From: an uncultured Erysipelotrichaceae bacterium
GTDB lineage: Bacteria > Bacillota_I > Bacilli_A > RFN20 > CAG-826
NCBI GenBank assembly: GCA_902773005.1
Contig: CACYCS010000128.1
Coordinates: 1,252 to 65,251, forward strand
DNA length: 64,000 nt
Direction of reading: 5' to 3'
Part shown: piece by piece, positions 2,873-63,913 of the stretch
How the letters are laid out: the number at the start of each line of letters is the position of its first letter
Numbering within the stretch: position 1 is the first letter of the stretch
Notes under the pieces: generated by a model
Database searches by the model: none
The model's input: the letters and a program-made list of their open reading frames with translations, nothing else
What the model was told of the DNA's origin: nothing
Program-made: the position numbers and the translations under genes

Positions 2873-2903
2873 TGTTCGCCTCCCATCGCATCTTTTTCAA
2901 GTC

Positions 2904-3019
2904 AAATGCAAATTTTGGTACAACAATTTTACACAAAAATGCAAATTTTGGTACATGTTTTTAGGTCGAAAATGCAAATTTTGGTACAACAATTTGGTTG
3001 AAAATGCAAATTTTGGTAC
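2904..3019 (+). repeat. Four direct 18-bp iterons AAATGCAAATTTTGGTAC at 33/33/32-bp phasing, in the promoter region of the DUF4143-type ATPase
   Basis: Exact copies at 2904-2921, 2937-2954, 2970-2987 and 3002-3019. Copies 1 and 3 extend to ...ACAACAATTT. Confidence 0.95.
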
Positions 3020-3025
3020 GAGAGT

Positions 3026-4700: not shown

Positions 4701-4801
4701 GGATGAATTATGGGGCTGACAAAGCAAAATCGCAAGATTGTCATATTAATTTCATTCATTCGTCATTGTTTGAAACTTCGGATAGGCTACTATGTAGGCA
4801 T

Positions 4802-9198: not shown

Positions 9199-9586
9199 GC
9201 ACATTAATCAGTATGACGTGAGCCTTTCTGGGTTCATGGGCTTCTTTTGAACCTCAAGAACTAACTCACGCGCCTTTGAATCCGCCATTCCTTTTCTTGG
9301 CGCTCTTTCAAGCGTGTCACCTCAGTAGATGAGATTGGGGGGTGAGCAAATACCAATGTCTCCCAACAAGCAGCGCATTATCCAATAGGCAGGCCACGGT
9401 GGGGTAAGCCTATTCTAGCGATACGCTCATTAGTCTAGCCAACTTGCGCTAAGCGAAGGGGAACAATCGCTCAATTCCTTCTGGCACATTGGAAATATCC
9501 GGCGATCGAGTTTGATTTGGGATGCAACTTCTTTGGAACTTAAGTTATCATTATTTAGGATTCGAAATGCAGAAAGGAGGCTTCCT

Positions 9587-18614: not shown

Positions 18615-18720
18615 AACCGCTGGGTATAACGTCATTTTGAAGGGATAGCCAGCGGTTTTATTCAAATTTTAGGCAAAAACCGCTGGGTATAACGCATTTT
18701 CGGTGGGATAACCAGCGGTT
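18615..18720 (+). repeat. Two 43-bp imperfect palindromes (AACCGCTGGGTATAACG..N..GGGATA(G/A)CCAGCGGTT) directly upstream of the ATPase promoter
   Basis: Copies at 18615-18657 and 18678-18720. The 9-bp arms AACCGCTGG/CCAGCGGTT are perfect. A TATAAT -10 box lies at 18749-18754. Confidence 0.95.
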
Positions 18721-18773: not shown

Positions 18774-20201
18774 ATGATTTTAGTCGGAAGAGAAAACGAA
18801 AGGTCCATGCTGTTGAACGCTTATAGCAGTTTCAAACCGGAATTTGCCGTCATATATGGCAGGAGAAGGGTCGGCAAAACTTATCTTGTGGATGCGACTT
18901 TCGATGGCAAATACGCTTTTCGACACAGCGCCCTACCGCCTGCTACCGATGTCGGGCAAAGTGAGATGAGCCCGCTTCAAAGGCAACTCACGCATTTCTA
19001 TTACTCATTGCTTTCCTTCGGTCTGAAGCCTACGAAAAAACCAAAGAACTGGGCCGAGGCGTTCTATTTGCTGGAAACAATGCTTTCTAAGAAAGAAAAC
19101 GAACGACTCGTCATCTTTTTAGACGAACTGCCTTGGTTCGACACGCCGAAGTCTGATTTCGTTTCCTATTTCGTCGGGTTCTGGAACAATTGGGCTTGTT
19201 TCCATAACGTCTTACTGATCGTTTCGGGTAGTTCAATTAGCTGGATAACCAACAAAATGTTCCTTGATCATGGCGGATTGTATGGCAGGCCTACGCTTCG
19301 CATTGGTCTATTGCCCTTCACCCTCAAGGAAACTGAACGGTTTCTCATTCAAAAGGGCGTCGTTCTTTCGCGTTACGACATCGCGCTTGCCTACATCTAT
19401 TTCGGAGGTATCCCTTATTACCTCGACATAATCCAGCCTGGGTTATCGCTCCCTCAAAGCATAGACCAAGCGTTCTTCGCTGAAAACGCACCGCTTCGAA
19501 ACGAGCTCGACAATCTCTTCAAGGCAAGTTTTGGACGTCCCGAAGCAATTCGAGACATTGTCTTGGCACTGAACACTAGGCGCGATGGCTTAACACGCGA
19601 CGAGATCCTGAAACAAATCGGCAAAGAAGACGGAGGCACGTTCTCAGAGAATATCAAATCCTTGGAACAAGCCAATTTTGTTTCGTCATATAAGCGCCTT
19701 GGCGAAGCGGACAAAAGATACCGTCTAATCGATGCGTTTTCAAAATTCGCGCTCCTATTCCAAGAAGGATTGGAAACCCATGACGAGCACTACTTCAGTA
19801 ACAATTCCAGCTCAGGCTCACTAAACGCGCTGAAAGGCTATGGCTTCGAAAATCTTTGTTTCAGCCATGTGCCGCAAATCAAATTTGCTTTAGGAATCAG
19901 CGGCGTAGCGTGTTCGGCCTACTCCTACTCGCTTAAAAAGGATGGTGCCCAAATCGACATGGTCTTGCAAAGGAAAGACAACATAGTGAATCTCTGCGAA
20001 ATGAAGTTCACCACCGAGCCTTATCGCCTCTCCAAGGAAGACGAAGAATCGACGCATCAAAAAGTAAGCGCGATAGAAAAGCTGATTCCTGATTCAAGCG
20101 CAGTCCATCCTGTATTGGTCACTACCTATCCAGTTGGCTCAAGCAGATACCAATCGTTATTCGCGAAAACAATCACTCTCGATGATCTATTCGCCATCTA
20201 A
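18774..20201 (+). CDS. AAA+ ATPase (archaeal-ATPase/PF01637-like) with C-terminal DUF234-like E..D..ExK block; paralogue 1 of 5
   Basis: Walker A is YGRRRVGKTYL and Walker B is VIFLDELPWFDT. Further blocks are IVSGSSISW, GGLYGR and GGIPYYL. The C-terminus reads GFENLCFSH...AQIDMVLQRKDNIVNLCEMKF. A GGAGG RBS is present. Confidence 0.8.
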   Translation: MILVGRENERSMLLNAYSSFKPEFAVIYGRRRVGKTYLVDATFDGKYAFRHSALPPATDVGQSEMSPLQRQLTHFYYSLLSFGLKPTKKPKNWAEAFYLLETMLSKKENERLVIFLDELPWFDTPKSDFVSYFVGFWNNWACFHNVLLIVSGSSISWITNKMFLDHGGLYGRPTLRIGLLPFTLKETERFLIQKGVVLSRYDIALAYIYFGGIPYYLDIIQPGLSLPQSIDQAFFAENAPLRNELDNLFKASFGRPEAIRDIVLALNTRRDGLTRDEILKQIGKEDGGTFSENIKSLEQANFVSSYKRLGEADKRYRLIDAFSKFALLFQEGLETHDEHYFSNNSSSGSLNALKGYGFENLCFSHVPQIKFALGISGVACSAYSYSLKKDGAQIDMVLQRKDNIVNLCEMKFTTEPYRLSKEDEESTHQKVSAIEKLIPDSSAVHPVLVTTYPVGSSRYQSLFAKTITLDDLFAI

Positions 20202-31571: not shown

Positions 31572-31690
31572 ATTCCGCTTCATTTGGTAGCAAAAACATA
31601 CAATAATCAGCGGAATACACCCGTTTTTGCATGGCATTCCGCTGAATTTGGTATAGAAAACCTACAATAATCAGCGGAATTGAATTTTAT
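31572..31690 (+). repeat. Two 45-bp elements with inverted termini ATTCCGCT...AGCGGAAT at the 3' end of ATPase paralogue 2
   Basis: Copies at 31572-31616 and 31636-31680 (39/45 identical). Copy 2 plus TGAATTTTA overlaps the stop codon at 31687-31689. Confidence 0.9.
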
Positions 31691-33141
31691 ATGCCTGCTG
31701 GTGCGAATAGCGCGTCCAGGGTAACGGCCTTGCGGAAATCATCCGCGTATTCGCCTCTAGAAAGGCCAATGGTCGTGATCAATGTCGGGACGACCTGGAC
31801 GTCTGGCTTCGTTTCCTTGGCGAAGATCGCTTTTCTTTTCTCAAGCACGCAATGATAATCGTAGCTCACCGAGAAAATGCCAGAACGGTATTTCATCTCG
31901 CAGAGATTGATGATGCCGTCTTTCCTTTCGATCACCAAATCCACCTGCGTCTTCTTCGACTTCTCCTCGGCGATGAACCAGGAGAATTGCATTGTCTCGA
32001 TACCAGATATGCCTAGCGCGGCCTTGACCTGGTCGAGATGAACGAAGACGAGGTTTTCGAATGCACGCCCCTTCCATTCGTTCTCCTCACCCATGGAAAC
32101 TTCGTCTTCCCAGACGTTTCCGTTTAGGCTTACCCTGCCTTCGACCTCGCGAAGGTAAAATAAGCAATACGGGTCAATCAATTTGTAATAAGGGATGTTC
32201 TTCTTTTGCCCATACGGCGTGTAGCGCAAGACGAAACTGCCAAATTCTAGCGCGCGCAAGGCTTTCGAGAATCGATCTCCGTCTTTCAATGCAACGGCAA
32301 ACAAAAGCTCCTCTCTAGTCATCCCCTGCTCGGATGTCGATAGGACCCTCACGATGGATTCACATAGGGAAGACGCATCGAACATCGAGGAGAATAGGCT
32401 CGCGAATTCGCCTTCGAGTTTTGGCGATTTCCCGAAGAAAATCGCATCGATGTTCTCGGCGAAGCTCATATCGGCATCGAATTGCTTCAGGTAGAACGGA
32501 ATCCCGCCAAGGCACATGTAGGCCGCGGCGATCCTAAGGCGAGGCAAATTCCCCATCCCGCAGGATCGAAGAAGCGATTCGGCTTCGAAAAGCTGGAATG
32601 GCTGAAGGTGCAGTCTCAAAGTCGCCCGATCATAAAGCCCGCCGCTATCGGCGACGATGTTATCGATCATCCAGGATGTTGAGCTACCCGCCACAACGAT
32701 GAGGACGTTGGCATCGGACTCCATGATATTGTTGATGAACCAGCCAAACGACTCGAGGAAGAGGGACCTCGGGGTATCCATCCACGGTATTTCGTCGAAG
32801 AAGATTACCTTTCTTGTTTTCCCGCCGTCAGCGCGGATTTTTTCGATAAGAAGCGCAAACGCTTCAAGCCAGCTCGTCGGCGTTTTGATCGTTTGACCAA
32901 AATAAAGCCGGAACGACAATGCGAACGCCCTTAGCTGAACGTTGAGTTTCCTCCCTTTCGTCTCCAGCATCCGTTTTGGCGAGACGCCGAGGTGCCTGAA
33001 AAAGAATTCGCGGTCAAAGGCCTCTTCGATGAGGGTCGTTTTTCCAACACGAAGGCGGCCATCAACGACGATAAGTTCATTCTCCTTTGACCGGAATCGA
33101 TTTCTGAGCTTCGTCAATTCCTTCTTTCTTCCAACGAACAC
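31687..33141 (-). CDS. AAA+ ATPase with C-terminal E..D..ExK block; paralogue 2 of 5
   Basis: GTG start. Blocks are DGRLRVGKTTL, VIFFDEIPWMDT, VVAGSSTSW, GGLYDR and GGIPFYL. The C-terminus is AFENLVFVH...TQVDLVIERKDGIINLCEMKY. Confidence 0.8.
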   Translation of the reverse strand: MFVGRKKELTKLRNRFRSKENELIVVDGRLRVGKTTLIEEAFDREFFFRHLGVSPKRMLETKGRKLNVQLRAFALSFRLYFGQTIKTPTSWLEAFALLIEKIRADGGKTRKVIFFDEIPWMDTPRSLFLESFGWFINNIMESDANVLIVVAGSSTSWMIDNIVADSGGLYDRATLRLHLQPFQLFEAESLLRSCGMGNLPRLRIAAAYMCLGGIPFYLKQFDADMSFAENIDAIFFGKSPKLEGEFASLFSSMFDASSLCESIVRVLSTSEQGMTREELLFAVALKDGDRFSKALRALEFGSFVLRYTPYGQKKNIPYYKLIDPYCLFYLREVEGRVSLNGNVWEDEVSMGEENEWKGRAFENLVFVHLDQVKAALGISGIETMQFSWFIAEEKSKKTQVDLVIERKDGIINLCEMKYRSGIFSVSYDYHCVLEKRKAIFAKETKPDVQVVPTLITTIGLSRGEYADDFRKAVTLDALFAPAGI

Positions 33142-33200
33142 GAGTGGAGATCTCCTGATCTAGGTCTATTATCGCGCGGGACGAGGGCATATCAAATCCA

Positions 33201-33257
33201 ATTCCGATACGCTTGGCTGTCAAAACATGCAATGTTGGTGGCGGAATTGAATTTTAG
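33201..33257 (+). repeat. Third, more diverged copy of the ATTCCG...GCGGAAT element, at the 5' side of ATPase paralogue 2
   Basis: ATTCCGATACGCTTGGCTGTCAAAACATGCAATGTTGGTGGCGGAAT + TGAATTTTA. The 16-mer GCGGAATTGAATTTTA is identical at 31674-31689 and 33241-33256. Confidence 0.75.
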
Positions 33258-33537
33258 GTTGCGAACCAAAAGAGGCTCGCCTCAATGATTCGTCGAGGTT
33301 CAAAAAGAATCGCATACTTCCTCGCATTTAGTCTTTTCAAGCAAACGAATAACATTGAAAAGTGTCGATAAACAGGTATTTTCGACCTTTAACGAATCAT
33401 TTAACGCATCGCGCGCGTTAAAATTTTAAAATCTAACGCTCGCGATGCGTTAAAATTCAAATAAGCCTTTCATAGACCTGCCCACACAAACCTCAAAGCA
33501 AATCCTATAAGTATCAATTTTAAACGGAAAATGCCGT

Positions 33538-33609
33538 TATTTTTGACACGTATAAGGCAAATTTGGCTTATATCTATCAAAAATAAAGACAAAATGGCTC
33601 TAAAATTGA
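33538..33609 (+). repeat. Downstream copy of a 72-bp direct repeat flanking ATPase paralogue 3
   Basis: TATTTTTGACACGTATAAGGCAAATTTGGCTTATATCTATCAAAAATAAAGACAAAATGGCTCTAAAATTGA. It ends 15 nt before the gene's 3' end. Confidence 0.95.
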
Positions 33610-33624
33610 TAGATATAGGTTTAT

Positions 33625-35070
33625 TTAGCGGAATAGGTCTTCAAGGGTTATGACCTTGTCGAAATCCGAATGGTAACCGCTATAGGAGAGGCCGAAGCAA
33701 GTGATCAATATCGGCGAGACCTGACAGCGGGGATTCTTTTCCTTTACTCGTTTGATTTTGTTTTCTAGATTCAGGTGGTCAGCTTCGGATTGGCGGTAGA
33801 TGTCCTGGCGGAATTTGGCCTCGCATAGATCGATGACTTTGTCTTTCCGCTCGATAATCAGGTCGATCTGCGCGCCGGGCTTATCCCCTTCTCTTTCGAT
33901 TGAGTAAGAGAAGCGCATCCCACGGACGCCAGATACGCCTAGGGCTCTTTTCACGTTATCCAAATGCATGGCGATGAGGTTCTCAAACGCCCCTCCGACG
34001 AACTCGTTTTCCTTTTCTGAATCGAAATAATCCGTGTCGAGGGTCGTTTTGTTCTTCCCAAAGCGCATGTAGAATCGCACGAATGGATCGCTGAGCTTGT
34101 ACCTCGCTTGCTTCTTAGATTCGCCATAAGGGACGTAACGAACGATGAAATTCCCTTCCTCCAATGAGTCAAAAACCCGAGAAAACGCTGCACCATCGGC
34201 TTTTTTAAGTCCTTCGACGATTTGTTTCCTCGTGTATCCCTCGTTACGTTTCCCGATGTATTCCGCCACCGCTTTCGCAAGCTTATCGCTATCGAAGGAA
34301 GACCGGAATAGCCTGCCGTATTCCTTCGCTAGCTTCGCATCTCGGGCGAAAAGCATCCGGTTGACGAACTCGGGAAGCGATTCGCCGCGATGGAGGAAAT
34401 TCAAATAGAAGGGAATCCCGCCGAAGACCATGTATATCCTAGCGACGTCAAGGCGACTCATCTCCATCCCCTTGTTCCGGAAATAGGATTCGGTCTCCCT
34501 AAGCGAGAAAGGCGAGAGGTGGATCGGGTTGGTGACGCGGTCATAAAGCCCGCCGGTTGAATGGATCACCTCATCCAGCATCCATGAAGTCGATGAGCCA
34601 GCGACGATTACCAAAGTATTGGGAATGACAGATGATGCGGTGTTGATGAACCACGAGAAAGCTTCGATGAAGCGTGATTTTCTTGTGTCAAGCCAAGGAA
34701 GCTCGTCGATGAAGATCACCTTCTTCCCGTCGCCTTGTTTCCCTTTTAGAAACCCTAGAAGCGCGGTGAATGCCTCGACCCAGTTCGCGAAGGCCTTCTT
34801 CTGCGGATATCCCCATAAAAGCAAAGAGGCGCGGAATGCCTGAAGTTGCATCTCTAGTGGGCTTTTCTGCCCGTTTCTAGGCTCCTCATCCTCTTCGTCA
34901 GAGGTCGACAAAGCAACGTGATGGAAGCAAAGCCGTTCGCGGAATAGACTCGAGACCAGATACGTTTTCCCGACCCTTCTCCTTCCATAGATCGCCGCGA
35001 AGCGGAACCCGTCCCCGCGATAGGCGTCTTCCAGTTCAGCGATCTCTTTTTCTCTTCCGACGATTTCCAT
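33625..35070 (-). CDS. AAA+ ATPase with C-terminal E..D..ExK block; paralogue 3 of 5
   Basis: Blocks are YGRRRVGKTYL, VIFIDELPWLDT, IVAGSSTSW, GGLYDR and GGIPFYL. The C-terminus is AFENLIAMH...AQIDLIIERKDKVIDLCEAKF. Confidence 0.8.
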   Translation of the reverse strand: MEIVGREKEIAELEDAYRGDGFRFAAIYGRRRVGKTYLVSSLFRERLCFHHVALSTSDEEDEEPRNGQKSPLEMQLQAFRASLLLWGYPQKKAFANWVEAFTALLGFLKGKQGDGKKVIFIDELPWLDTRKSRFIEAFSWFINTASSVIPNTLVIVAGSSTSWMLDEVIHSTGGLYDRVTNPIHLSPFSLRETESYFRNKGMEMSRLDVARIYMVFGGIPFYLNFLHRGESLPEFVNRMLFARDAKLAKEYGRLFRSSFDSDKLAKAVAEYIGKRNEGYTRKQIVEGLKKADGAAFSRVFDSLEEGNFIVRYVPYGESKKQARYKLSDPFVRFYMRFGKNKTTLDTDYFDSEKENEFVGGAFENLIAMHLDNVKRALGVSGVRGMRFSYSIEREGDKPGAQIDLIIERKDKVIDLCEAKFRQDIYRQSEADHLNLENKIKRVKEKNPRCQVSPILITCFGLSYSGYHSDFDKVITLEDLFR

Positions 35071-35125
35071 GAGCTACCCCTCTTTCTAATTACTATATTA
35101 GTCAAAAATAAAAGGAATTTCGACT

Positions 35126-35197
35126 TATTTTTGACACTTATAAGGCAAATTTGGCTTATATCTATCAAAAATAAAGGCAAAATGGCTCGAAAATTGA
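35126..35197 (+). repeat. Upstream copy of the 72-bp direct repeat flanking ATPase paralogue 3
   Basis: 69/72 identical to 33538-33609. A partial third start (TTGACACTTATAAGG) follows at 35194-35208. Confidence 0.95.
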
Positions 35198-44953: not shown

Positions 44954-46381
44954 TCAGGCCATTAGATCGGATAAAGTAATCACAAAGGGATAATCGCTGC
45001 TATAGGCGCCTTGGTTAAGCCCGAAGGACGTGATAAGCACGGGGTAAATGCCGCCTTTCTTTTTGATATATGGCGATAGAGAAGCGATTTTGCGCTCCAG
45101 ATCCAAATGACTTTTCTCGCTGCAGGAATACTCTTTCGAATAGAATTTCATCTCGCAGAGGTTAAGCCCCCCATCCTTCCTTTTGATGATCAAATCGATT
45201 TGCGCCCCAGGTTTGTCTTCATCCCCTGCCACGGTATAGAAAGTCGCTTCTGTTTCAATCCCTCCGATGGATAGTTTGCTCTCGATGCGATCAAGATGGT
45301 TGAAGCAGAGATTTTCGAAACTGAATCCGATGGGGGAATTCGGCGAGGTGGCGAAATGGTGCTTTTTCTCCTCGTTGCCCTTGACTCGCTTGAGATAGAA
45401 GAAGCAAAACGGATCGATGAGTTTGTAATGGACTTCCTTTTTGCTTTTCCCAAACGGCACATAACTTAAAAGGAAATCGCTCCTTTCAAGCGCTTTGAGC
45501 TTCTGAAAGAAAGCTCCATTGGCATCAAGTTTCAATTTCGATGCGATCTCATTCGCCGTATACCCGAGGTTTCTATTGGAGAGCAATTCTATGATGGATT
45601 TCATCGTATCGGGATCGGAGAATTGCGAAGTGAAAAGATCCTCGAATTCGTCTTCTAGCTCGCGGTCAGGCCCAAATAGGAGGAAATCGATGTTCTGCTT
45701 TGCGGAGAAACCGGCCTGGAAATAGTCCAAATAATACGGGATGCCGCCTAAGGCCATATAGGACAAAGCAACTTCGTAAGGAGAATAATGGCAGTTCTTA
45801 TATTCCAGGAATTTGCCACATTCTCCTAGAGTAAATGGGCTTAGGCGTATTTTCCTAGTGATTCTCCGGTAGAGTCCTTTGTTTCCATGGATGAGCTTAT
45901 CGCTGATCCAAGAGCTGGCGCTTCCGCAAACGACGAGAATCATATTATCCAAATGGCAAAGATAGCCATTGTAAAAATCGGAAAAGGCGCTCAGGAATCC
46001 TGATTTCGGCGTGTCCATCCATGGCATTTCATCGATGAAGACGACATGATGCCTATTGGGGTCAGTATGGTTTAGAAGCTGCTCTAGTCGCGAGAAGGCT
46101 TCATTCCAACTCTTGAGGCGCCCTCTTTGCTTCTTAGCACCATATCGGAGCAAGCTCCTTTCGAAGGCGTTCAGCTGCCTTTGCTTCTTATTGACCGCTA
46201 AGGCGCTATCGTCTAACGGCTCTGAGCCAGTATGGCTGAAAGCGAAATGGCCCTTGTAAGTCTCGTCGATCAAAAACGTCTTGCCAACTCTTCTCCTGCC
46301 GTACACGGCGACGAATTCGCACTTCTCGCTGCTCAACAAGGAAGTCAGCAGCCTGACTTCTTTTTCTCTGCCGATAATCAT
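44954..46381 (-). CDS. AAA+ ATPase with C-terminal E..D..ExK block; paralogue 4 of 5
   Basis: Blocks are YGRRRVGKTFL, VVFIDEMPWMDT, VVCGSASSW, KGLYRR and GGIPYYL. The C-terminus is SFENLCFNH...AQIDLIIKRKDGGLNLCEMKF. Confidence 0.8.
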   Translation of the reverse strand: MIIGREKEVRLLTSLLSSEKCEFVAVYGRRRVGKTFLIDETYKGHFAFSHTGSEPLDDSALAVNKKQRQLNAFERSLLRYGAKKQRGRLKSWNEAFSRLEQLLNHTDPNRHHVVFIDEMPWMDTPKSGFLSAFSDFYNGYLCHLDNMILVVCGSASSWISDKLIHGNKGLYRRITRKIRLSPFTLGECGKFLEYKNCHYSPYEVALSYMALGGIPYYLDYFQAGFSAKQNIDFLLFGPDRELEDEFEDLFTSQFSDPDTMKSIIELLSNRNLGYTANEIASKLKLDANGAFFQKLKALERSDFLLSYVPFGKSKKEVHYKLIDPFCFFYLKRVKGNEEKKHHFATSPNSPIGFSFENLCFNHLDRIESKLSIGGIETEATFYTVAGDEDKPGAQIDLIIKRKDGGLNLCEMKFYSKEYSCSEKSHLDLERKIASLSPYIKKKGGIYPVLITSFGLNQGAYSSDYPFVITLSDLMA

Positions 46382-46433
46382 TGTTATGCTCCTTTTCCAC
46401 GCTTATTATGACATGTCATAAATTTATAATCCA

Positions 46434-46545
46434 CGATAATTAGCGTTATTCAAGCATTTTTGGTCGGATAACGCTGTTTATCCAGCGATTTCAGCCCGAT
46501 AATTAGCGTTATTCAAGCATTTTTGGTTGGATAACGCAGTTTATC
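46434..46545 (+). repeat. Two 49-bp direct repeats (63-bp period), each with inverted AGCGTTAT / ATAACGC arms, upstream of ATPase paralogue 4
   Basis: CGATAATTAGCGTTATTCAAGCATTTTTGGT(C/T)GGATAACGC(T/A)GTTTATC at 46434-46482 and 46497-46545. Confidence 0.95.
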
Positions 46546-46835: not shown

Positions 46836-48122
46836 ATGAACCTAGGAAAAGAGCCTGTGCCCATTGGAGTCAGGGATTTTAGATTGATGGCCAGTAGCCC
46901 TCATTACATCGACAAAACCGGATTTATCGCAGACGTTTGCAAGTGCCCAGGATGCGTAATCGCTTACCATAGGCCGGACGGATTCGGCAAAAGCTTGGCC
47001 CTATCGATGCTAGAATGCTTTTTCTCGATGGACGAAGATAGCCGGAGCTATTTCAAAGGCAAAGCCATTGCGAAGCTAAATGGAGGGGTCTGCATGGAGG
47101 AAATGAATGCCTATCCCACGATCCATTTGGACCTAAGCGCGCTGGATGCGCCCGATTACCCATCCATGATGGAATACGTCGCAAATATGATGGCTTCCGC
47201 TTACGAAAAGGCAAACGTCTCGTCCTTTAAAAGCATTTGGGAATACGATAGGAAAAGTATCAAAGCGATTCTAAGCAAAGCCGCTAATGAGGTCGAACTG
47301 GAATTTTCTTTGCAACGCCTCAGCATGTATTTGAAGGAAGAAACCGGCAAAAGGGCAGTGATCCTGATCGATGGCTATGACGCGCCTGTCATAGCGGGTG
47401 CGAAACACGGCTACGCCAAAGAGGCGGGCGGATTCTTCCAGGCGTTCTTCGGCGCGGCGCTAAAGGGGAACGAGGCTATGGAGCGCGGCGTATTGGTCGG
47501 AGTCGTTCCAATCATCTACGCCTCGGATTTCTCGGGCTTCAATAACCTTATCTATAGGTTTGGATACGATGACATAGGAGAAGAAAGATTCGCCTTCACG
47601 CGTAAAGAAACGATGGATTATCTTCGTTTATACGATAAGAATTTCGAAGAAAAAATGGTTCAAGAATGGTATGGGGGATACCGTTTGTCCAACCAAGAAA
47701 GTTTCTGCCCACGTTCGATTCTTGCCTTTGCCAATGGCGATTTTGAATTCAAATCATATAAGGAATCATCGAGTATTGACCCTCTTTTGCTAAGGAACGA
47801 AGACCCTGCCGAAGTCGTCCAATGCGTAGAGGGATTGATTTCAGGAAAACCGACAGTTTGCCTCACACCAACGACGATAGGGCCAGACTCTATAGCGGAA
47901 CAGCCAAAGTTCAGGGAGTTATCGCTATATTCTGGATACTTCACCGTCGACGATATTGATACGCGCGAGTATCATCTCTTCACGCGCATCAAAATACCCA
48001 ATATCGAATCAAGAAAAGCACTCGAAAAGAACGTTCTTGGCGCACTTATGATTACTCCCCAAACGGCATCGAAAGCTAAGCGCCAAAAACCATCTTCAAA
48101 AGCAACGAAAAAAGCTGCTTAG
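46836..48122 (+). CDS. Predicted AAA-ATPase (PF09820-like) lacking the usual C-terminal PD-(D/E)xK_9 domain
   Basis: PIGVRDFRLMASSPHYIDKTGFI...YHRPDGFGKSLALSMLECFFS is the family N-terminal signature. It ends in a K/A-rich tail with no ExK block. Confidence 0.7.
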   Translation: MNLGKEPVPIGVRDFRLMASSPHYIDKTGFIADVCKCPGCVIAYHRPDGFGKSLALSMLECFFSMDEDSRSYFKGKAIAKLNGGVCMEEMNAYPTIHLDLSALDAPDYPSMMEYVANMMASAYEKANVSSFKSIWEYDRKSIKAILSKAANEVELEFSLQRLSMYLKEETGKRAVILIDGYDAPVIAGAKHGYAKEAGGFFQAFFGAALKGNEAMERGVLVGVVPIIYASDFSGFNNLIYRFGYDDIGEERFAFTRKETMDYLRLYDKNFEEKMVQEWYGGYRLSNQESFCPRSILAFANGDFEFKSYKESSSIDPLLLRNEDPAEVVQCVEGLISGKPTVCLTPTTIGPDSIAEQPKFRELSLYSGYFTVDDIDTREYHLFTRIKIPNIESRKALEKNVLGALMITPQTASKAKRQKPSSKATKKAA

Positions 48123-57731: not shown

Positions 57732-59681
57732 ATGTACGCCATCAGCTTTGAGATATCTGCCTTCCTGCTGTCATTGCTTTGCTTTGTCTATTGCTTGACC
57801 GCGAAAAGGAAGCAATACGTCCCGCCGAAAGGGTTTTTGAATCGCCTGTTCCACCAGCATTTCCAGTTCCTGATGATGCTTTTGACCAACATGGTCTCCT
57901 CGATCGCTTCCGTCACCGGCGTCTATTTGACGCAAGTATCGGGGGACGGCATCGCCTTCTGGCAGTATTTCTTCCACGCGATGTACTTCGTCTTCCACAC
58001 GACCCTTTCCCTCGCCTTCGGCTTGTACGTGATGTCCGTCACCGGGACGAACCTCAAGAAGAACAAGGCCTTCTTCATCCTTTTCTTCATCCCTTACGTC
58101 GCAGCCGAGATCCTCATCCTCACCAACCAATGGACGCGGCTAGCCTTCTCTATGGATCCCGAAACCGGATACAACCGCGGCACCCTCATGCCTTTGCTAT
58201 ATGGGCTAGCCGCCTTCTACGTCGTGATGGGCGTCGTCTTCTTCATCAAGAACATGAAGCTCATCACCCGCGCCGATAGAATCGCGGTCATAACCTTCGT
58301 CATCATCGCTGCTGCCGGAATCGTCACCCAAGCCATCAAATCCGATTGGCTCGTGGAGCTATTCTGCGAATCTCTCGCATGTCTGTTCATCATGATGGTG
58401 CTTGAAGAGAAGGCTGGGCACATCGATCAGATGACGGGGCTGCTCAACCGATTCGCATTGTCCGATGCCGGAAGGCGCAAGATCGCGAACAAGGAACCCT
58501 TCGACCTCGTCCTCATCAGAGTGAGGGGCGTCGGAGGCTTAGCCAAGCGATTTGGGGAGCGTGCCGCGGATGAGGTTCTCGTCCAATTCGCCGCATACCT
58601 GTCGCAGATTTCGGGCCAAGGCACCCCTTATGCCTATAGGCGCGGCGAGTTCGTCACCTTGTTCCCGAGCGTAGATGGAGGCGAGCCCGCGAAGCAATTC
58701 GCAAACCAAGTATTAGAGAGGCTAGCGTCCAATTGGAAGCTAAGGAACTTCGAGACGACCCTAGACGGATTCCTCGCGATCGCGAATTGCCCTATCGACA
58801 TCCAAAACGAAAGCCAATTCGAAGACCTGATGGTCGCCTACGCGACTTATGAGCCGGTGGAGGAGACCCCTTGCCTCATCGCGAATTCGGAAGTCGGGAC
58901 CATGGTCCTCACCAGAAGCTACGAGGAAGAGCTCCGCCAGGCGATCGCGAACAAAGAGCTCGCCGTATACTACCAGCCGATCTACTCCTTGAAGAAGAAA
59001 GCGACTCTCTCAGCCGAGGCCCTACTACGTATTCCAAGCGGAAAATTCGCACACGTATCCCCTGAAATCTATATTCCGATCGCCGAGAAGACCGGGCTCA
59101 TCAAGGAAATCGGCCTATTCGTGTTCGAGGAGGTCTGCCGCTTCCTCTCCAGCCAGGAGGCGAAGGAAAGCAAGATCGAATACATCGAATTGAACCTCTC
59201 GGTCTACCAGTTCCTCGACCCCGACCTCGTCAAGAGCTTCGAGGACATCAGGAAGCGTTATGGGGTGCCTAGCTCCTCGATCAACCTCGAGATCACCGAA
59301 ACCGAAGGGGCGATCGATAAGGAAGAGGTCCTCAAAACGATCGAGGTATTCCGCGAATTGGGCTACACCCTCTCGCTCGATGACTTCGGGACCGGGTATT
59401 CCAATTTCGTGAGGATGGTGCGTTGCAAATTCGAGAACATCAAGATCGACAAATCGATCCTCTGGAGCCTACCTAGCGACGACAACGGGCTCATGATCAT
59501 CAAAAGCCTTACCTCCTTCATCAAGAACCAGGGTTCGAACATCATCCAGGAAGGCGTTGAGACCAAGGAGCAGCTGGATCTTGTGGAATCCTGCGGCTGC
59601 GATTACGTCCAGGGGTTCTACTTCAGCAAACCTCTGCCCGAAACCGAGTTCCATCAATATCTGGCAAGCGAAGCGCGATGA
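57732..59681 (+). CDS. Membrane sensor with degenerate GGDEF (RRGEF) and intact EAL domain; probable c-di-GMP phosphodiesterase
   Basis: About 7 N-terminal TM helices. The GGDEF-like domain carries YRRGEF at 58638-58652. EAL motifs are SAEALLRI, ELNLS, LEITE, LDDFGTGYSNF, IKIDKS and QEGVET. Confidence 0.8.
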   Translation: MYAISFEISAFLLSLLCFVYCLTAKRKQYVPPKGFLNRLFHQHFQFLMMLLTNMVSSIASVTGVYLTQVSGDGIAFWQYFFHAMYFVFHTTLSLAFGLYVMSVTGTNLKKNKAFFILFFIPYVAAEILILTNQWTRLAFSMDPETGYNRGTLMPLLYGLAAFYVVMGVVFFIKNMKLITRADRIAVITFVIIAAAGIVTQAIKSDWLVELFCESLACLFIMMVLEEKAGHIDQMTGLLNRFALSDAGRRKIANKEPFDLVLIRVRGVGGLAKRFGERAADEVLVQFAAYLSQISGQGTPYAYRRGEFVTLFPSVDGGEPAKQFANQVLERLASNWKLRNFETTLDGFLAIANCPIDIQNESQFEDLMVAYATYEPVEETPCLIANSEVGTMVLTRSYEEELRQAIANKELAVYYQPIYSLKKKATLSAEALLRIPSGKFAHVSPEIYIPIAEKTGLIKEIGLFVFEEVCRFLSSQEAKESKIEYIELNLSVYQFLDPDLVKSFEDIRKRYGVPSSSINLEITETEGAIDKEEVLKTIEVFRELGYTLSLDDFGTGYSNFVRMVRCKFENIKIDKSILWSLPSDDNGLMIIKSLTSFIKNQGSNIIQEGVETKEQLDLVESCGCDYVQGFYFSKPLPETEFHQYLASEAR

Positions 59682-59694
59682 TGAAGCGCTTCGC

Positions 59695-59964
59695 TTTTCA
59701 TATGCGCCTATCGATAAGCCCAATGCCTCCAATCATTCGGCGGGGCGAAATGCCCTTCTCCCGCTCAGGAAAGGAGAAAATCCGGCGCTCGTGATCGAGC
59801 TGAAGGTGAGCGATTCCGCGGATTCCGCGATCGAGCGGATCAAGGCCAAGGAGTATTACAAGCCACTAGAAAGCTATTGCGGCGAGGTCCTGCTCGTCGG
59901 GATTAGCTTCGACAAGGAAACTTTGAAGCACGCCTGCAGGATCGAACGCATCAAAATAGGATAA
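59695..59964 (+). pseudogene. Orphan C-terminal fragment of a PD-(D/E)xK_9 (DUF1703-type) nuclease domain
   Basis: ...SAGRNALLPLRKGENPALVIELKVSDSADSAIERIKAKEYYKPL...VLLVGISFDKE matches the C-terminal half of PF09820/PDDEXK_9 proteins. There is no ATPase part and no credible start. Confidence 0.55.
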
Positions 59965-59979
59965 AACACAAAACCGATT

Positions 59980-60017
59980 AGCCCGTCTTGGATTCGCTCC
60001 CAAGGCGGGCTTTCCTT
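59980..60017 (+). terminator. Rho-independent terminator
   Basis: Stem GCCCGTCTTGG (59981-59991) pairs with CCAAGGCGGGC (60000-60010) including one G-U pair, followed by TTTCCTT. Confidence 0.6.
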
Positions 60018-60027
60018 ATCCTCGCCA

Positions 60028-60081
60028 AATTATAATCCCCCAAAAGTCGATGTTTTGATTGAGTTTTGGGGGATTATAATT
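60028..60081. repeat. 54-bp palindromic element, copy 1 (18-bp perfect arms AATTATAATCCCCCAAAA / TTTTGGGGGATTATAATT)
   Basis: Arms at 60028-60045 and 60064-60081, with an 18-nt loop. Confidence 0.95.
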
Positions 60082-60195
60082 TCCGCGCTTATAGTGAATA
60101 GTGTCAGTTTAAAGCAGATTCCTAAGGTTTCATCATGTGTTTTTTTCTTTTTCTAGCCGCATTATTTTTACTTGTAGAAATATTGCTTGAAAAAC

Positions 60196-60245
60196 ATAAT
60201 CCCCCAAAAGTCGACTTTTACACCGACTTTTGGGGAGTTATAATT
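60196..60245. repeat. Palindromic element, copy 2, ending 29 nt before the ATPase paralogue 5 start codon
   Basis: ATAATCCCCCAAAAGTCGACTTTTACACCGACTTTTGGGGAGTTATAATT. Confidence 0.95.
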
Positions 60246-60273
60246 GATTGACCAAAGTCGTGGGAGGTGCCCA

Positions 60274-61755
60274 ATGAGCTATATATATGGTAGAAAACCG
60301 GAAATGGCGGAGCTAGAACGCCTCAGCCAATCCAAGAAAGCCGAATTCCTAGCGGTATATGGGAGGCGAAGAGTTGGCAAGACCTATCTGATTACGAGAT
60401 TCTTCGAGAATCAGTTCGCTTTCTTCCATACGGGTTTGCCCCCGTACAATGAAGGGGATGGCCTCGATTCAAGTGGCGATGGGAGGAAAGACCACCGCAA
60501 GATGCGCGAACAATTGAATCACTTCGCCGAATCGCTAGCGGAATATGGCTATGCATCCAAAGGGCCTTTGAACTCATGGCTTGATGCCTTCTCCGCGCTC
60601 AAAAGCCTTCTCAAACCCCTGCTTAACAAAGGAAAGAAAGTCGTTGTCTTTTTGGATGAACTCCCTTGGATGGATACGCCGAAAAGCGGATTCCTCCAAG
60701 AGTTTCAGGCTTTTTGCAATTCGTTTGCATGCCGATTTGACGACATCCTTCTCGTCGTCGCAGGAAGCAATATCACCTGGATCAGCAGCGAGCTCATCAA
60801 CGGCTATGGTGGGCTATATGACCGCCTGACCGCCGAGATGAAGCTTTCGCCCCTTTCCTTAGGGGAATGCGAGGATTATCTGCTGCGCGGAAAAGGGATA
60901 CGCTTCTCCCGTTACGATTTGGCTTTCGCTTACATGGTCTTTGGCGGCGTCCCCTACTACCTCGACAAATTCAAGACGGGATTGTCATTGCCTCAGATCA
61001 TCGATTCCTGCTTCTTCGGCAAAAACGCAACGCTCCGAAACGAATTCCATAGGCTTTTCCTCTCCTCTTTCCGAAACGGGGAGAAGATTCAGCAAATCGT
61101 TACGGCGTTATCGGAGCGTTCATTGGGGCTTACGCGCGAAGAGATTGCATCCTCTCTGGGGCTGACTTCAGGAGGAAACGTAAGCGAATACCTTTCCTCT
61201 TTGGAGAACGCGGACTTCATCGTCTCATATACTCCGCTAGGCGAAGCGAAGAACGCCGTCTACTATCGCTTGATCGACCCGTTCTGCCTGTTTTATCTCC
61301 GCTTCGTACTTGGCTCGACCAAATTCGACGAAAAGCTCTTCTCAGGGCTATCGGCGGGAGGAGCCATCAATTCATGGAGGGGCTTTGCGTTTGAAAACGT
61401 CTGCTTCAATCACATCGCCTCCATCAAAAAGGCGCTTGGCGTAAGCGGCGTTTTCAGCAAGCAATATGCTTTCATCGACACGAAGGACAAGAAGAAGCAA
61501 GCCCAGATAGATATGGTAATCGACAGGGCGGACAATATCGTGAACCTATGCGAGATGAAATTCACGAAGTCAAGCTATGAACACGACAAAACCGAGCATG
61601 ACCGCCTATTGAATCGCGAGAATCGTCTAGAGGCGCTTATTCCGAAGCGAAAAGTTATTCGGAAGGTCCTCATCACCTCAATCGGGCTCAAAAACGGCAT
61701 CCACTCGAGCGATTTCGACAAAGTCTTGGTGCTGGACGATCTCTTTGACGAATAA
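60274..61755 (+). CDS. AAA+ ATPase with C-terminal E..D..ExK block; paralogue 5 of 5
   Basis: RBS GGGAGG precedes ATG 60274. Blocks are YGRRRVGKTYL, VVFLDELPWMDT, VVAGSNITW, GGLYDR and GGVPYYL. The C-terminus is AFENVCFNH...AQIDMVIDRADNIVNLCEMKF. Confidence 0.8.
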   Translation: MSYIYGRKPEMAELERLSQSKKAEFLAVYGRRRVGKTYLITRFFENQFAFFHTGLPPYNEGDGLDSSGDGRKDHRKMREQLNHFAESLAEYGYASKGPLNSWLDAFSALKSLLKPLLNKGKKVVVFLDELPWMDTPKSGFLQEFQAFCNSFACRFDDILLVVAGSNITWISSELINGYGGLYDRLTAEMKLSPLSLGECEDYLLRGKGIRFSRYDLAFAYMVFGGVPYYLDKFKTGLSLPQIIDSCFFGKNATLRNEFHRLFLSSFRNGEKIQQIVTALSERSLGLTREEIASSLGLTSGGNVSEYLSSLENADFIVSYTPLGEAKNAVYYRLIDPFCLFYLRFVLGSTKFDEKLFSGLSAGGAINSWRGFAFENVCFNHIASIKKALGVSGVFSKQYAFIDTKDKKKQAQIDMVIDRADNIVNLCEMKFTKSSYEHDKTEHDRLLNRENRLEALIPKRKVIRKVLITSIGLKNGIHSSDFDKVLVLDDLFDE

Positions 61756-61756
61756 C

Positions 61757-61806
61757 ATAATCCCCCAAAACTCGACCAATACATCGACTTTTGGGGGATT
61801 ATAATT
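61757..61806. repeat. Palindromic element, copy 3, starting 2 nt after the ATPase paralogue 5 stop codon
   Basis: ATAATCCCCCAAAACTCGACCAATACATCGACTTTTGGGGGATTATAATT. Confidence 0.95.
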
Positions 61807-61901
61807 TCCATTCTTCCAATATATTGGATCGAGTTCGCGCACGTTTAAAAGAATCTGCTGAATGCAAAATCGACATATCCGAATCGAATGCAAATCGTTC
61901 C

Positions 61902-62219
61902 TTATACCAGCAATATGCGATCTATCACTTCTTTCACGGCATCGCTTGCCCGCTCATACGCCTCGATTACTTTCCTGTCGTGTGGGGACAATTCCCGATA
62001 AGAGGATTCCTGAATGCCAATCAGATAATAGAGCGACATGTCCAGTGTGTTGGCAATGATTTTCAGCTGAGCAAGAGAGGGAAACGGGGCTCCGCCTAGC
62101 ATTCTTGAAACGCTAGATTGGGTGATGCCCAAAGATTCCGCAAGATCATCCTGCGTGATGCCGCGGGCCCTCATTCCTTCGCGGATTTTGGATAGGGTGG
62201 TGATTTCGTTTTCGTCCAT
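61902..62219 (-). CDS. XRE-family HTH transcriptional regulator
   Basis: LSKIREGMRARGITQDDLAESLGITQSSVSRMLGG. Divergent from the downstream two-gene unit. Confidence 0.8.
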   Translation of the reverse strand: MDENEITTLSKIREGMRARGITQDDLAESLGITQSSVSRMLGGAPFPSLAQLKIIANTLDMSLYYLIGIQESSYRELSPHDRKVIEAYERASDAVKEVIDRILLV

Positions 62220-62328
62220 GGTCCAATTATATGCGGTATGCGCATATTCCTAAAGCAAAAGATTCTATTCTTGCATTGCATATTGTGTAATGCTAATATG
62301 CATTATACGCATTTTTGGAGTATTTGAT

Positions 62329-62862
62329 ATGCCACATCGTTATGTCATCGCGGACACGCATTTCCACCACGCCAACGTCATCGCCTACTGCGGCAGGCCT
62401 TTTCGCGACGTGAATCACATGAATGAAATCTTGATCAGGAACTGGAATAACACAGTCGGCAATCAGGATCTCGTCTATATGCTTGGGGACTTCTGCTTGT
62501 CCAGCAAATTCGAAGTGAACGAAGCCCTTTGCTCACGCCTAAACGGGAGGAAGGTCCTCGTTATGGGCAATCACGACCGGATGCAGCCGATCAAATATCT
62601 GCAAGCGGGTTTTCGCACGGCCACGCGAAAGCCAATCATGGTCGATCCCGGCGTCATCTTGATGCACGAGCCATTCGCGGACCCCGCCGCTTACGTCGAC
62701 CCGAAATCAATCTACATCTTTGGGCATGTCCACGATAAGCATTGCCCAATGGACGATTATCCGAATTGCTTTTGCGTCAGCGTGGAGCGAATTGGATACC
62801 GGCCGATTGATCTCGACAAATTGATCGCGGATATCCGCAAAGGGAGGAAAAATCATGACTGA
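62329..62862 (+). CDS. Calcineurin-like metallophosphoesterase (small, phage-type)
   Basis: Motifs are VIADTHFHH, MLGDF, VMGNHD and FGHVH. GGAG precedes ATG 62329. Confidence 0.75.
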   Translation: MPHRYVIADTHFHHANVIAYCGRPFRDVNHMNEILIRNWNNTVGNQDLVYMLGDFCLSSKFEVNEALCSRLNGRKVLVMGNHDRMQPIKYLQAGFRTATRKPIMVDPGVILMHEPFADPAAYVDPKSIYIFGHVHDKHCPMDDYPNCFCVSVERIGYRPIDLDKLIADIRKGRKNHD

Positions 62863-63913
62863 AGGGACTCTCGTCATCATCGAAAACGATAAAATCTACG
62901 AATACCCAACCCTTCGCGGGGACATGTACCCAAAAGGGAGAGGGCAGGCCATCATCCTTTCATATTTGGCGGGAAAACTCAAATCCGTTGAGGACGTGAC
63001 ATCGTTTTTCGAGTCAATTCTTTATGAAAGCGAGAAGGAGCTGCGCTTCAAGCCACGGGAACTACCGGCCGAAAAAGAAGTCGAGGTAGGCGATGGCGAA
63101 TGGGTTTACGTCATAAACAATACTATTGAAACTCGCTCGCTGCGCTATTTCGGCGATGCGATTGAAGCGAAGGGAAAATGCCTCTCGGGGTATAAAGAGG
63201 GGTCGTTGATGTTCTGTCTGGAACAAAATAGTCCCATCCAGTTGACTTTCCGCGGCGCAGAAATCCAAACCGCCATAGATGCGCTTGACCAGTATTGCCG
63301 AATGCACTTGGGCCAATTCACCCACGTGTTTTTCTACTACCGCTTCGGCTTGAGGCGTCCTAAAAAGGAGTATCTCGACTGCTATTGGAAAAACCTGCTT
63401 GCAGCAATACGCGACATCCTCTTCAAAGACGACGAATTGTCCTCCTATGGCGATCGTGGGAACTATGGGATAGGCCAAGACAAAGTGAGTCAAGAAGGGA
63501 AAATGGCCTACGAGATTCTAAAAACCATTGAAAGCGCACGCGCATATTTCTTGAAGCCAGAAGGCGGATATACCGTCGACTTTGACGGCCCGCTCAAATT
63601 GACTGGCATCCCCTTCCCAAAGGCAAGCGTACATTGGGATGGGGACGAAATCGTTGAGACCGTGATATTCCAAGGGGAGCATCTATTGGTTTTGCTTGAC
63701 GCCTTGAAAGCGAATCGCGCCTTCTGCGAATTCCGCTTTGACGAAATGTTCGCATCTTTGAAACCAGACGATGACGCGATCACGCTGCTTGAGCTGCTTT
63801 CTTGTTCCGCGAGTGATGAGCTTGAGGGCGAATCGGATGTTCCCGATCCGAAATGCGCGAAAGACCTAATTCAAGGAATCATCGACTCCGTCATCAAGAG
63901 CGAGTGGGAATAA
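62855..63913 (+). CDS. Hypothetical protein, translationally coupled to the metallophosphoesterase
   Basis: 352 aa. It overlaps the upstream stop by 8 nt. No motif recognised. Confidence 0.5.
   Translation: MTEGTLVIIENDKIYEYPTLRGDMYPKGRGQAIILSYLAGKLKSVEDVTSFFESILYESEKELRFKPRELPAEKEVEVGDGEWVYVINNTIETRSLRYFGDAIEAKGKCLSGYKEGSLMFCLEQNSPIQLTFRGAEIQTAIDALDQYCRMHLGQFTHVFFYYRFGLRRPKKEYLDCYWKNLLAAIRDILFKDDELSSYGDRGNYGIGQDKVSQEGKMAYEILKTIESARAYFLKPEGGYTVDFDGPLKLTGIPFPKASVHWDGDEIVETVIFQGEHLLVLLDALKANRAFCEFRFDEMFASLKPDDDAITLLELLSCSASDELEGESDVPDPKCAKDLIQGIIDSVIKSEWE

Follow-up and report, generated by a model that had tools for sequence, protein, structure and literature searches.

A gene for a predicted ATPase–nuclease of the PDC-S27 family lies near the right end of the 64,000-nt stretch analysed here (hereafter the window), which comes from contig CACYCS010000128.1 of an uncultured Erysipelotrichaceae bacterium. 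The gene, which we call paralogue 5, is enclosed by three copies of a long palindrome. Our leading explanation, which we hold tentatively and doubt slightly more than we believe, is that these palindromes form a cis-acting bracket around a self-contained expression module, with a dyad site overlapping the promoter at one end and a further copy close to the stop codon at the other. Four things together support this promoter/operator reading: the palindromes are a trait of the whole gene family, the upstream copy overlaps a promoter-like sequence, the palindromes are constrained at the level of sequence, and the gene product has a predicted DNA-binding fold of the ORC/Cdc6 type.

The gene (60274–61755, plus strand) is flanked by three related palindromes of about 50 nt each, and looking at the sequence directly confirmed the initial annotation both in its count of copies and in its description of the gene as tightly enclosed. 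Copy 1 (60027–60082) has 25-nt arms with one G·G mismatch and one G·T pair around a 6-nt loop, its layout being an outer AAATTATAAT box, a CCCCCAAAA shell, the G·G mismatch, an inner stem and the loop GTTTTG. Copy 2 (60196–60241, extending to 60245, plus strand) can be drawn either with 18-nt arms containing two mismatches or with 12 perfect pairs and a 10-nt loop, and copy 3 (61757–61802, extending to 61807) has 19-nt arms with one C·C mismatch and an 8-nt loop. The only conserved irregularity in the stem is a symmetric 1×1 G·G mismatch, which turns into C·C when the element is flipped. Some of the spacings first given needed small corrections: 28 nt rather than 29 lie between the end of copy 2 (60245) and the ATG (60274), and copies 1 and 2 are separated by 113 nt rather than 115 (60083–60195, AT-rich, 33% GC). 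Copy 3, said to begin 2 nt past the stop, has its ATAAT arm one base (C) after the TAA (61753–61755) and its TAATCC two bases after it. We also noted their orientation, which had not been described: copy 1 is inverted relative to copy 3, the two being reverse complements with the loop included (94% over 51 nt), and copies 2 and 3 are direct repeats (86%). Allowing up to three mismatches, the arm ATAATCCCCCAAAAGTCGA has six matches in the window, every one of them within copies 1–3; 0.06 matches are expected by chance, and none of 100 shuffles reached six.

The palindrome is not a scattered repeat. The initial annotation had named one finding that would count against its interest, i.e., a common repetitive extragenic palindromic (REP)-like element next to many unrelated genes, and searches of the window, genomes, metagenomes and viruses placed the palindrome only at the same syntenic locus. 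The window contains no further copies. A gene-blind scan of one genome per species (185,579 species) with a loose pattern (ATCCCCCAAAA..TTTTGGGGGAT) gave 95 matches, most of them unrelated hairpins from many phyla. A scan of Joint Genome Institute (JGI) metagenomes gave 27 loci, of which three (L115, L119 and L123) carry the real element with its ATAAT flanks, and all three are the same syntenic locus in related strains. The viral collection IMG/VR had no matches to the extended paralogue 5 palindrome and none to the type of palindrome found at locus L156. We also tried the outer-box pair alone, which gave 29 chance matches, none of them palindromic past the forced bases and none near a family gene.

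Two homologous loci help to define the unit. The first encodes a protein 97% identical to that of paralogue 5 (P0001, locus L096), is syntenic with the window and carries the palindrome. The second (P0002, locus L097), found by protein search, encodes a protein 65% identical; its contig is AT-rich and its flanks differ from those of the window, and the order there is palindrome, 31 nt including AGGAGG, gene, 2 nt, palindrome. The limits of homology between the window and L097 coincide with the outer edges of the palindromes. Because the palindrome is confined to one locus plus this one homologous cassette, we do not regard it as REP-like. It shares with REP elements, bacterial interspersed mosaic elements (BIMEs) and miniature inverted-repeat transposable elements (MITEs) an imperfect palindromic form and a location in intergenic DNA, but it is undispersed, each type is private to one gene, and target-site duplications are absent (no repeated bases were found beside 60027 and 61807).

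Nor are palindromes peculiar to paralogue 5, as first supposed; they are a trait of the family, present in the window paralogues and in the lineages sampled. All five ATPase_2 paralogues in the window have long palindromes of their own, each different in sequence, and among the top eight hairpins of the 64 kb by strength, six are within 200 nt of one of these five genes (the remaining two are small-loop terminators). An upstream palindrome 0–60 nt before the start codon (74 nt in L132) was found for five of five window paralogues and for most of the roughly 17 others sampled, and a related palindrome 0–15 nt past the stop codon was found at about 40% of family loci. For example, 10 independent IMG/VR loci, with homologues 33–42% identical, have six long hairpins in 2.5 kb of upstream flank vs four in 25.6 kb of other sequence (p = 8e-5), and the upstream hairpins have loops of 12–27 nt, whereas hairpins elsewhere have terminator-type loops of 3–7 nt. 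Five further lineages have an upstream palindrome (L144, which is Bacteroidales-type; L155; L156, a Clostridiales metagenome-assembled genome, or MAG; L157; and L159), and L144, L155, L156 and L157 also have a related copy 0–12 nt past the stop. An identical 39-nt element is present upstream and across the stop codon in L132.

Copies at both ends of the gene in direct orientation, with sequences unrelated between lineages, were found for paralogue 5, the window paralogue at 33625, L097, L132, L155, L156 and L157. At least eight lineages, including Prevotella and the Clostridiales MAG, share an outer TTATAATC...GATTATAA box and a GC-rich shell around a variable core. The outer box (ATTATAAT) is self-complementary, and it is because this box is shared that the paralogue 5 palindrome looks like those of Prevotella L014 and L025 and that of L139.

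The upstream palindrome appears to overlap the promoter. The best promoter match in 59600–62400 is a candidate sigma-70-type promoter in copy 2 (60217–60244, plus strand, TTTACA-16-TATAAT, 11/12, 30 nt before the ATG), with its −35 in the loop and its −10 in the right arm. The upstream palindromes of L097 (TTGACA-16-TATAAT, 12/12) and L156 (TTGACG-17-TATAAT, 11/12) contain similar matches, and all three fit the 16–18-nt spacing of sigma-70 hexamers. Counting matches of at least 10/12, 6 of 12 upstream regions have one on the sense strand and 0 of 12 have one on the antisense strand. In L144, a 68-nt palindrome that reaches the ATG encloses a Bacteroidetes-type TTTG...TATCTTTG pair. The palindrome ends only 0–17 nt from the true ATG in L144, L155, L156 and L159, so in these cases the core promoter must overlap the palindrome, and the left arm cannot be part of the gene's own transcript. 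On the sense strand most loops are rich in T, and most copies have a T-run there, which fits a −35 region facing the gene.

The way in which the palindromes are conserved bears on whether they act as DNA or RNA. Between the window and L097, coding DNA is 64% identical, the palindromes are 81–86% identical and the outer arms are near-invariant. Within the stems of the paralogue 5 family, 88.6% of cells are paired and 12 of 24 pairs are invariant, with one compensatory change. Stem mismatches in 26 palindromes comprise 9 wobbles on the sense strand, 10 on the antisense strand and 23 of other kinds. There is therefore neither a G·U bias on the mRNA strand nor covariation, and the stem is kept at the level of sequence, which argues against the RNA processing at hairpins that the initial annotation had implied. 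Judging from these sequence patterns, we favour the view that the palindromes are a double-stranded DNA element overlapping the promoter.

The product of paralogue 5 (493 aa) is a predicted AAA+ ATPase with a winged helix and a PD-(D/E)XK nuclease, and its ATG is preceded by a Shine–Dalgarno sequence (GGGAGG, 60262–60267). It matches the PADLOC PDC-S27 profile PDLC04984 over its whole length (E = 9.2e-165, residues 1–491 vs positions 1–473 of 474), for which the other tested window paralogues gave 4e-145 and 9e-152, and it matches Pfam ATPase_2 (PF01637) at 8.6e-13. Sequence searches of NCBIfam and PDB with the product gave no match, and exact-protein searches with the product (from either of two start codons) and with the protein of one neighbouring gene gave none either. 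Walker A (G30..K36 T37), Walker B (D128 E129) and the nuclease residues D413, D420, E427 and K429 are all invariant in 13 family sequences. An AlphaFold2 model of the product has a predicted local distance difference test (pLDDT) score of 86, and its top Foldseek match is 2qen (a P. abyssi ATPase_2 protein), followed by Orc1/Cdc6 on origin DNA and then by STAND NTPases; the 2qen and ORC/Cdc6 matches cover the N-terminal two thirds. As modelled, the product is an ORC/Cdc6-like AAA+ ATPase with a winged helix, i.e., a DNA-binding-type fold.

PDC-S27 has been described as a fusion of an ATPase with a PD-(D/E)XK nuclease, and it is reported to rank among the commonest candidate defence genes of archaea and of rumen microbiomes and MAGs (PMC12988326, PMC13356809). 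The motif and one of these descriptions (PMC12988326) together point to a nuclease fold in our product, and by membership in PDC-S27 it is a candidate for antiviral defence. Experimental confirmation is still awaited for most such PADLOC candidates, and a test of PDC-S27 is not reported (PMC12988326). The literature we searched on PDC-S27 nowhere mentions flanking palindromes.

Related strains differ at the palindromes, as we found in four fetched contigs and in those of 12 public runs from ruminant gut. One allele has a single upstream palindrome (copy 1, a 28-nt leader and the ATG; X2, X3, X4, X11, L096, L115 and L123), and the other has two together with the spacer 60083–60195, as in the window (X6, X7, X9, X17 and X19). 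The two alleles part precisely where copy 1 ends on its right side. Only over 60196–60295 (copy 2 and the leader) does identity to L096 fall as low as 74%; it is 93–96% up to about 60600 and 96–100% over the remainder of the gene, except that its last 60 nt, like the flank downstream, are 87–96% identical. Both in its loop and in the 28-nt leader (GATTGACC...) that follows, copy 2 is like L097 and unlike copy 1, and with the local drop in identity this means that the control region was swapped as a block.

The palindromes also flip. The core of copy 3 in the window is the exact reverse complement of that in L119, with identical flanks, and the orientation opposite to the window's was found in L119, L096, L115, X4, X9 and X11. 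Both orientations are present in sample X10 (depth 3.1 of 5.99). In X17, 61757/61803 is a joint of ‘opposite strands’, and the contig of X6 is broken at 61770. At the P0107 locus, an independent flip of a 10-nt loop was found in one of 10 strains (L149). The flippable segment between perfect arms is 10–18 nt, or up to 26 nt with A/T runs. The palindromes break short-read assemblies exactly at these points, and the flips show that the elements are dynamic in natural populations. The flips and copy-number changes probably arise via hairpin-mediated template switching or recombination between arms.

On the promoter/operator reading, the palindromes would act as double-stranded DNA and not as RNA hairpins, and the upstream palindrome would overlap the core promoter, the loop of copy 2 supplying the −35 (TTTACA) and its right arm the −10 (TATAAT). 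The two conserved arms would be a dyad site for a sequence-specific DNA-binding protein, most likely the gene's own ORC/Cdc6-like winged-helix product. Binding could keep a potentially toxic ATPase–nuclease tightly controlled and shield the gene from read-through transcription, and the copy abutting the stop could be the same site reused as a transcript stop or insulator, possibly also serving as a second binding site. Long perfect arms would make such an element structurally unstable, with cores that flip and copy numbers that shift between strains. The sequences show the anatomy, recurrence, conservation, promoter matches and polymorphisms described above; that the palindrome has promoter activity, that a protein binds it and which protein this would be is what we infer. 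The stability of the unit in its place also counts in favour (no empty site in the 12 runs, and one context for P0107).

Autoregulated dyad operators that lie over promoters are familiar from toxin–antitoxin systems, from the C-protein boxes of restriction–modification systems and from BrxR-type sites upstream of defence islands. The palindromes resemble these in being private to one gene and lying over the −35/−10 of a potentially toxic gene whose product has a (predicted) DNA-binding domain, and some paralogues have tandem upstream copies. They differ in being far longer, with 14–25-bp arms and 6–27-nt loops, in having an extra copy right after the stop, and in sharing an outer box across phyla.

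Several points weigh against this reading. Candidate RNA runs yielded contigs that looked like DNA, and no usable transcript ends. Copy 1 has a poor −35 (TTTTGG-16-TATAAT, 8/12, as in L096), yet it is the sole upstream copy in most related strains. About a fifth of the sampled family genes (L125, L127, L128 and L135) are without a strong upstream palindrome. We considered whether the gene's own winged helix tracks the class of palindrome and found no support for this, as the identities go the other way: in the winged-helix region, the Prevotella protein with a paralogue 5-like palindrome is 34–35% identical to paralogue 5, and P_18774, which has an unrelated palindrome, is 53% identical. This mismatch weakens the idea of self-recognition. 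On its own, a promoter/operator role also leaves unexplained both the stop-proximal copies at about 40% of loci and the direct repeats that flank some units (L025, L126 and L144), and arms of 14–25 bp are far longer than those of typical operators.

Direct repeats and stop-proximal copies would be more at home in the alternative that ranks next, which we consider unlikely: a hairpin-bounded gene cassette in which the palindromes are attC-like recombination sites where the unit would be cut out and inserted, folded as hairpins or cruciforms and acted on by a recombinase in trans or by the cassette's own ATPase–nuclease. The attC sites of integrons are imperfect palindromes with RYYYAAC/GTTRRRY cores and bulged extrahelical bases, and clusters of attC sites lacking an integrase are known as CALINs. 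Our units are alike in having a 45–70-nt imperfect palindrome at or just past the stop, a gene packed between two sites, a gene-specific sequence within a shared architecture, and a conserved unpaired position.

Much of the anatomy would suit a cassette. The same palindrome is present at both ends, in direct orientation and abutting the stop, in independent lineages, and its sequence is private to each gene, as in integron cassettes. Homology between the window and L097 stops at the outer palindrome edges with different flanks beyond, L014 and L025 have the same palindrome-plus-gene unit between different neighbours, and the unit of L156 is wedged between two host genes with zero spare bases. 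Long direct repeats surround the unit in L025 (a Prevotella MAG, with an exact 32-bp repeat at 4684–4715 and 6339–6370 around palindrome and PDC-S27 gene), L126 (about 50 bp) and L144 (23 bp). The fact that the allele breakpoint coincides with copy 1's right edge, the G·G mismatch recurring in several palindrome families, and a Prevotella palindrome at a synteny break beside a desulfoferrodoxin (dfx)-like gene can be read in the same way.

What a mobile cassette should leave behind, however, was not seen. The empty-site allele suggested as a check by the initial annotation was absent from the 12 runs, where no contig joins 60027 to 61807, and there was likewise no presence/absence polymorphism in the 10 listed places of P0107. 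P0107 was tried as a case of mobility through several contexts and rejected, since a single genomic context was found in all 10 of the places listed (24 contigs read). No integrase or recombinase was found among the open reading frames (ORFs) and Pfam matches at 57–64 kb (window and flanks examined). The attC core motifs are absent: the arms end in ATAATCC.../...GGATTAT, with no AAC/GTT triplets at the equivalent positions in 11 aligned copies. Bulged extrahelical bases and an unpaired central spacer are absent too, the symmetric 1×1 G·G mismatch being the only conserved irregularity. Both sites here are of the same type, and every unit has a gene of this one family as its cargo, with promoter-like hexamers of its own, whereas integron cassettes are promoterless and diverse. 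The direct repeats may have another origin, as regulatory sites in common (L144) or as remains of a duplication.

A role as RNA hairpins seems to us improbable, even though the palindromes fold very well. In such a role they would terminate transcription strongly, partly in both directions, and so insulate the gene, and as 5′/3′ stem-loops they would protect its mRNA from exonucleases. Computed folding energies for copies 1, 2 and 3 are −33, −22.6 and −25.3 kcal/mol as RNA (z = −8.9, −6.0 and −7.4) and −20, −13.1 and −15.3 kcal/mol as DNA (z = −9.0, −5.1 and −6.7), which bears out the earlier statement that they would form very stable hairpins in either form. Bidirectional terminators are often found between convergent genes, which is where copy 3 lies, and the A-rich 5′ and U-rich 3′ flanks (AAAUUAUAAU ... 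AUUAUAAUUU) are like those of such a terminator. Inverted repeats are generally enriched just past stop codons (PMC6060812), and a similar Prevotella palindrome follows an unrelated dfx-like gene.

Terminators nevertheless fit poorly. As the initial annotation held, the stems are much longer than those of ordinary terminators (2–3 times), and a consensus scan calls none on the gene strand: copy 2 is called on the minus strand only, and copies 1 and 3, followed by ATTATAATTT, are not called. Its statement that no U-tract follows the stems was only roughly right, as the 3′ flank AUUAUAAUUU is U-rich but broken up. Our elements share with Rho-independent bidirectional terminators a GC-rich stem, A-/U-rich tracts and, for copy 3, the position between convergent genes, but the conserved 3′ flank is AUUAUAAU and not a plain U run, and the element is also present in the promoter region. 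Upstream palindromes ending 0–17 nt from the ATG overlap the promoter and so cannot be part of the transcript. The absence of a sense-strand G·U bias and of covariation is also unfavourable, the arm sequence is kept where a purely structural stem would have drifted, and a terminator role gives no cause for the 5′ and 3′ copies to share their sequence. An Rfam search produced only sub-threshold miRNA-hairpin noise.

Comparably doubtful, and bolder, is the suggestion that PDC-S27 units are hairpin-bounded modules whose ATPase–nuclease recognises its own palindromes as cruciforms, with these serving both as structure-dependent switches and as recombination sites. If so, extrusion or a core flip would turn the promoter off or reverse it, and a defence nuclease would thereby gain a sensor of DNA supercoiling or DNA damage. 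The single-gene cassette could then move, through cleavage or recombination at both palindromes, without a conventional transposase or integrase.

Switching by inversion has known counterparts, such as the invertible-promoter phase-variation switches of fimS and of Bacteroides capsule loci. As in these, inverted repeats surround an asymmetric promoter element and both orientations occur in one sample. The segment here, however, is only 8–26 nt, too short for a recombinase synapse, no recombinase gene is nearby, and flips have so far been seen only in copies without a good −35. Another likeness is to the ‘minute inversions’ at hairpins described for plastid spacers such as trnH-psbA (PMC2903610, PMC6824564). 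The two have in common an exact inversion between arms in close relatives and polymorphism in populations (copy 3 and the L149 loop), but minute inversions are a mutational phenomenon and not a function, and here they hit a promoter-like asymmetric element, where they could reverse the direction of transcription.

The palindromes might also lack any function of their own and be by-products of hairpin-prone duplication or template switching in variable defence-island DNA. The flips and copy-number changes do mark them as mutationally active sequences. We think a lack of function very unlikely, however, as at 65% protein identity the palindromes are better conserved than the coding sequence, they keep their positions, and an outer box in common, across many lineages and phyla, and the composition of their loops is biased by orientation, with a sense-strand T-run in most copies. 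Least credible of all are origin recognition box (ORB)-like initiator sites of a small replication origin beside an ORC-like initiator gene, as in archaeal-type origins (ORB beside orc1/cdc6), for which the ORC/Cdc6-like fold and the 113-nt, 33% GC spacer between two palindromes directly upstream are suitable, but the spacer and second palindrome belong to the two-copy allele only and are missing from most sibling strains, GC skew does not change at the locus, and an initiator would not be expected to have a conserved nuclease domain or several paralogues in each genome.

Position and flipping are not new in themselves, because inverted repeats are generally enriched past stop codons and in promoter regions (PMC6060812) and inversions of hairpin loops are a known class of mutation (PMC2903610). 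As far as our searches show, what is new is the link to one gene family, arms of 14–25 bp with large loops, and an outer box that crosses phyla, along with the embedded promoter and the matching copies at both ends of the gene. The bracket offers a testable regulatory or recombination element for a very common, uncharacterised defence candidate, and its signature could improve the annotation of PDC-S27 genes and their boundaries. It is also a possible account of how a nuclease–ATPase stays silent and insulated wherever it lands.

The other four window paralogues have the following arrangements. Paralogue 18774–20201 has tandem 43-nt palindromes (18615–18657 and 18678–18720, arms AACCGCTGGGTAT / ATARCCAGCGGTT) 53–158 nt upstream, with a TATAAT 20 nt ahead of its ATG. 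Around paralogue 33625–35070 (minus strand) is a 73-nt direct repeat (33537–33609 and 35125–35197, 96% identical), each repeat holding a 50-nt palindrome (TTATTTTTGA...TCAAAAATAA), which makes this a second palindrome–gene–palindrome unit in the window. Tandem palindromes (ATTCCGCTGA...TCAGCGGAAT) run from the stop of paralogue 31687–33141 (minus strand) at 31572–31616 and 31636–31680, and a related arm (AATTCAATTCCGC) lies upstream of it at 33196–33256. Paralogue 44954–46381 (minus strand) has tandem 48-nt palindromes upstream (46435–46482 and 46498–46545). Nearer its start is a perfect 16-bp palindrome (TTATGACATGTCATAA, 46406–46421) with the look of a classical operator. The spacer between the two tandem paralogues 31687–33141 and 33625–35070 contains a 55-nt palindrome with a 21-bp stem (TTTAACGCATCGCGCGCGTTAAA..., 33400–33454) unrelated in sequence to either gene's bracket.

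To the left of paralogue 5 is the truncated C-terminal remnant of a PDDEXK_9-type gene (AAA-ATPase_like/PD-(D/E)XK; 59683–59964, plus strand), which matches Pfam PDDEXK_9 below the gathering score (E = 5e-4, profile positions 43–101 of 105) and is kept in the sibling strains L096, L115 and L123. The remnant is followed by an intrinsic-terminator-like hairpin (59980–60011, plus strand; a 12-pair stem with 8 GC pairs, an 8-nt loop and the tail TTCCTTATCC), which ends it and is of an ordinary type outside the palindrome family. The convergent right neighbour is an XRE-family helix-turn-helix (HTH) gene (61902–62219, minus strand; Pfam HTH_3, 1.3e-9). It is probably outside the module, and we rejected it as a conserved partner: the L156 neighbour is only generically similar (28% over 57 aa), and no such gene was found at the other family loci.

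Past the HTH gene the strains diverge (window 62290–63913 vs L096 3466–6141). In L096 a metallophosphoesterase gene is mostly absent, and the homologue of ORF 62855–63913 is interrupted by about 1.9 kb that includes an AbiEii-type gene. Elsewhere in the window are two Schlafen/AlbA_2-HTH genes and one AAA-ATPase_like (PF09820) gene (9512–10975, 14717–16159 and 46836–48122), so the window is rich in ATPase and nuclease families of the ‘defence island’ kind. At the threshold used, none of these three genes has a long palindrome beside it.

Some of the related loci have further repeats. What is repeated over 32 bp in L025 is the 3′ end of an AAA_14/DUF4143-like (PDC-S01-type) ATPase gene that lies upstream, and a short third arm (TTTTGGGGATT) lies ahead of the L025 palindrome. 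In Prevotella L048, L055, L073, L081, L083 and L084, a TATAATCCCCCAAAAC...GTTTTGGGGGATTATA palindrome follows a conserved 124-aa ORF that, judged by eye only, is desulfoferrodoxin-like. This palindrome marks a synteny break, with far-side sequence that differs between species. Downstream of the unit in L097 (2096–2163), an ORF begins MERKYYQYLVKWLNNPLRKPLII, which by eye is like the N-terminus of an AAA_14/DUF4143 (PDC-S01-type) ATPase, and three direct repeats of about 33 nt (TTGAATTAAAAAACGTGCAAC...) lie ahead of it. Intergenic DNA upstream of P0107 (L144–L153, about 2600–3400) varies by up to about 390 nt among strains and contains several short hairpin repeats of the CACCGCAC/GGTGTG type; a hairpin there with a perfect 30-bp stem in L144 (3275–3341) has only 15 bp in L145. 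Lastly, a palindrome of the AAAAATCAGCCATTTTCGAG...GAAAACGGCTGA family lies 95 nt downstream of one family gene in L125 (3033–3078), and a palindrome of the same type lies directly upstream of another family gene in L134 (1401–1448), with its core in the opposite orientation.

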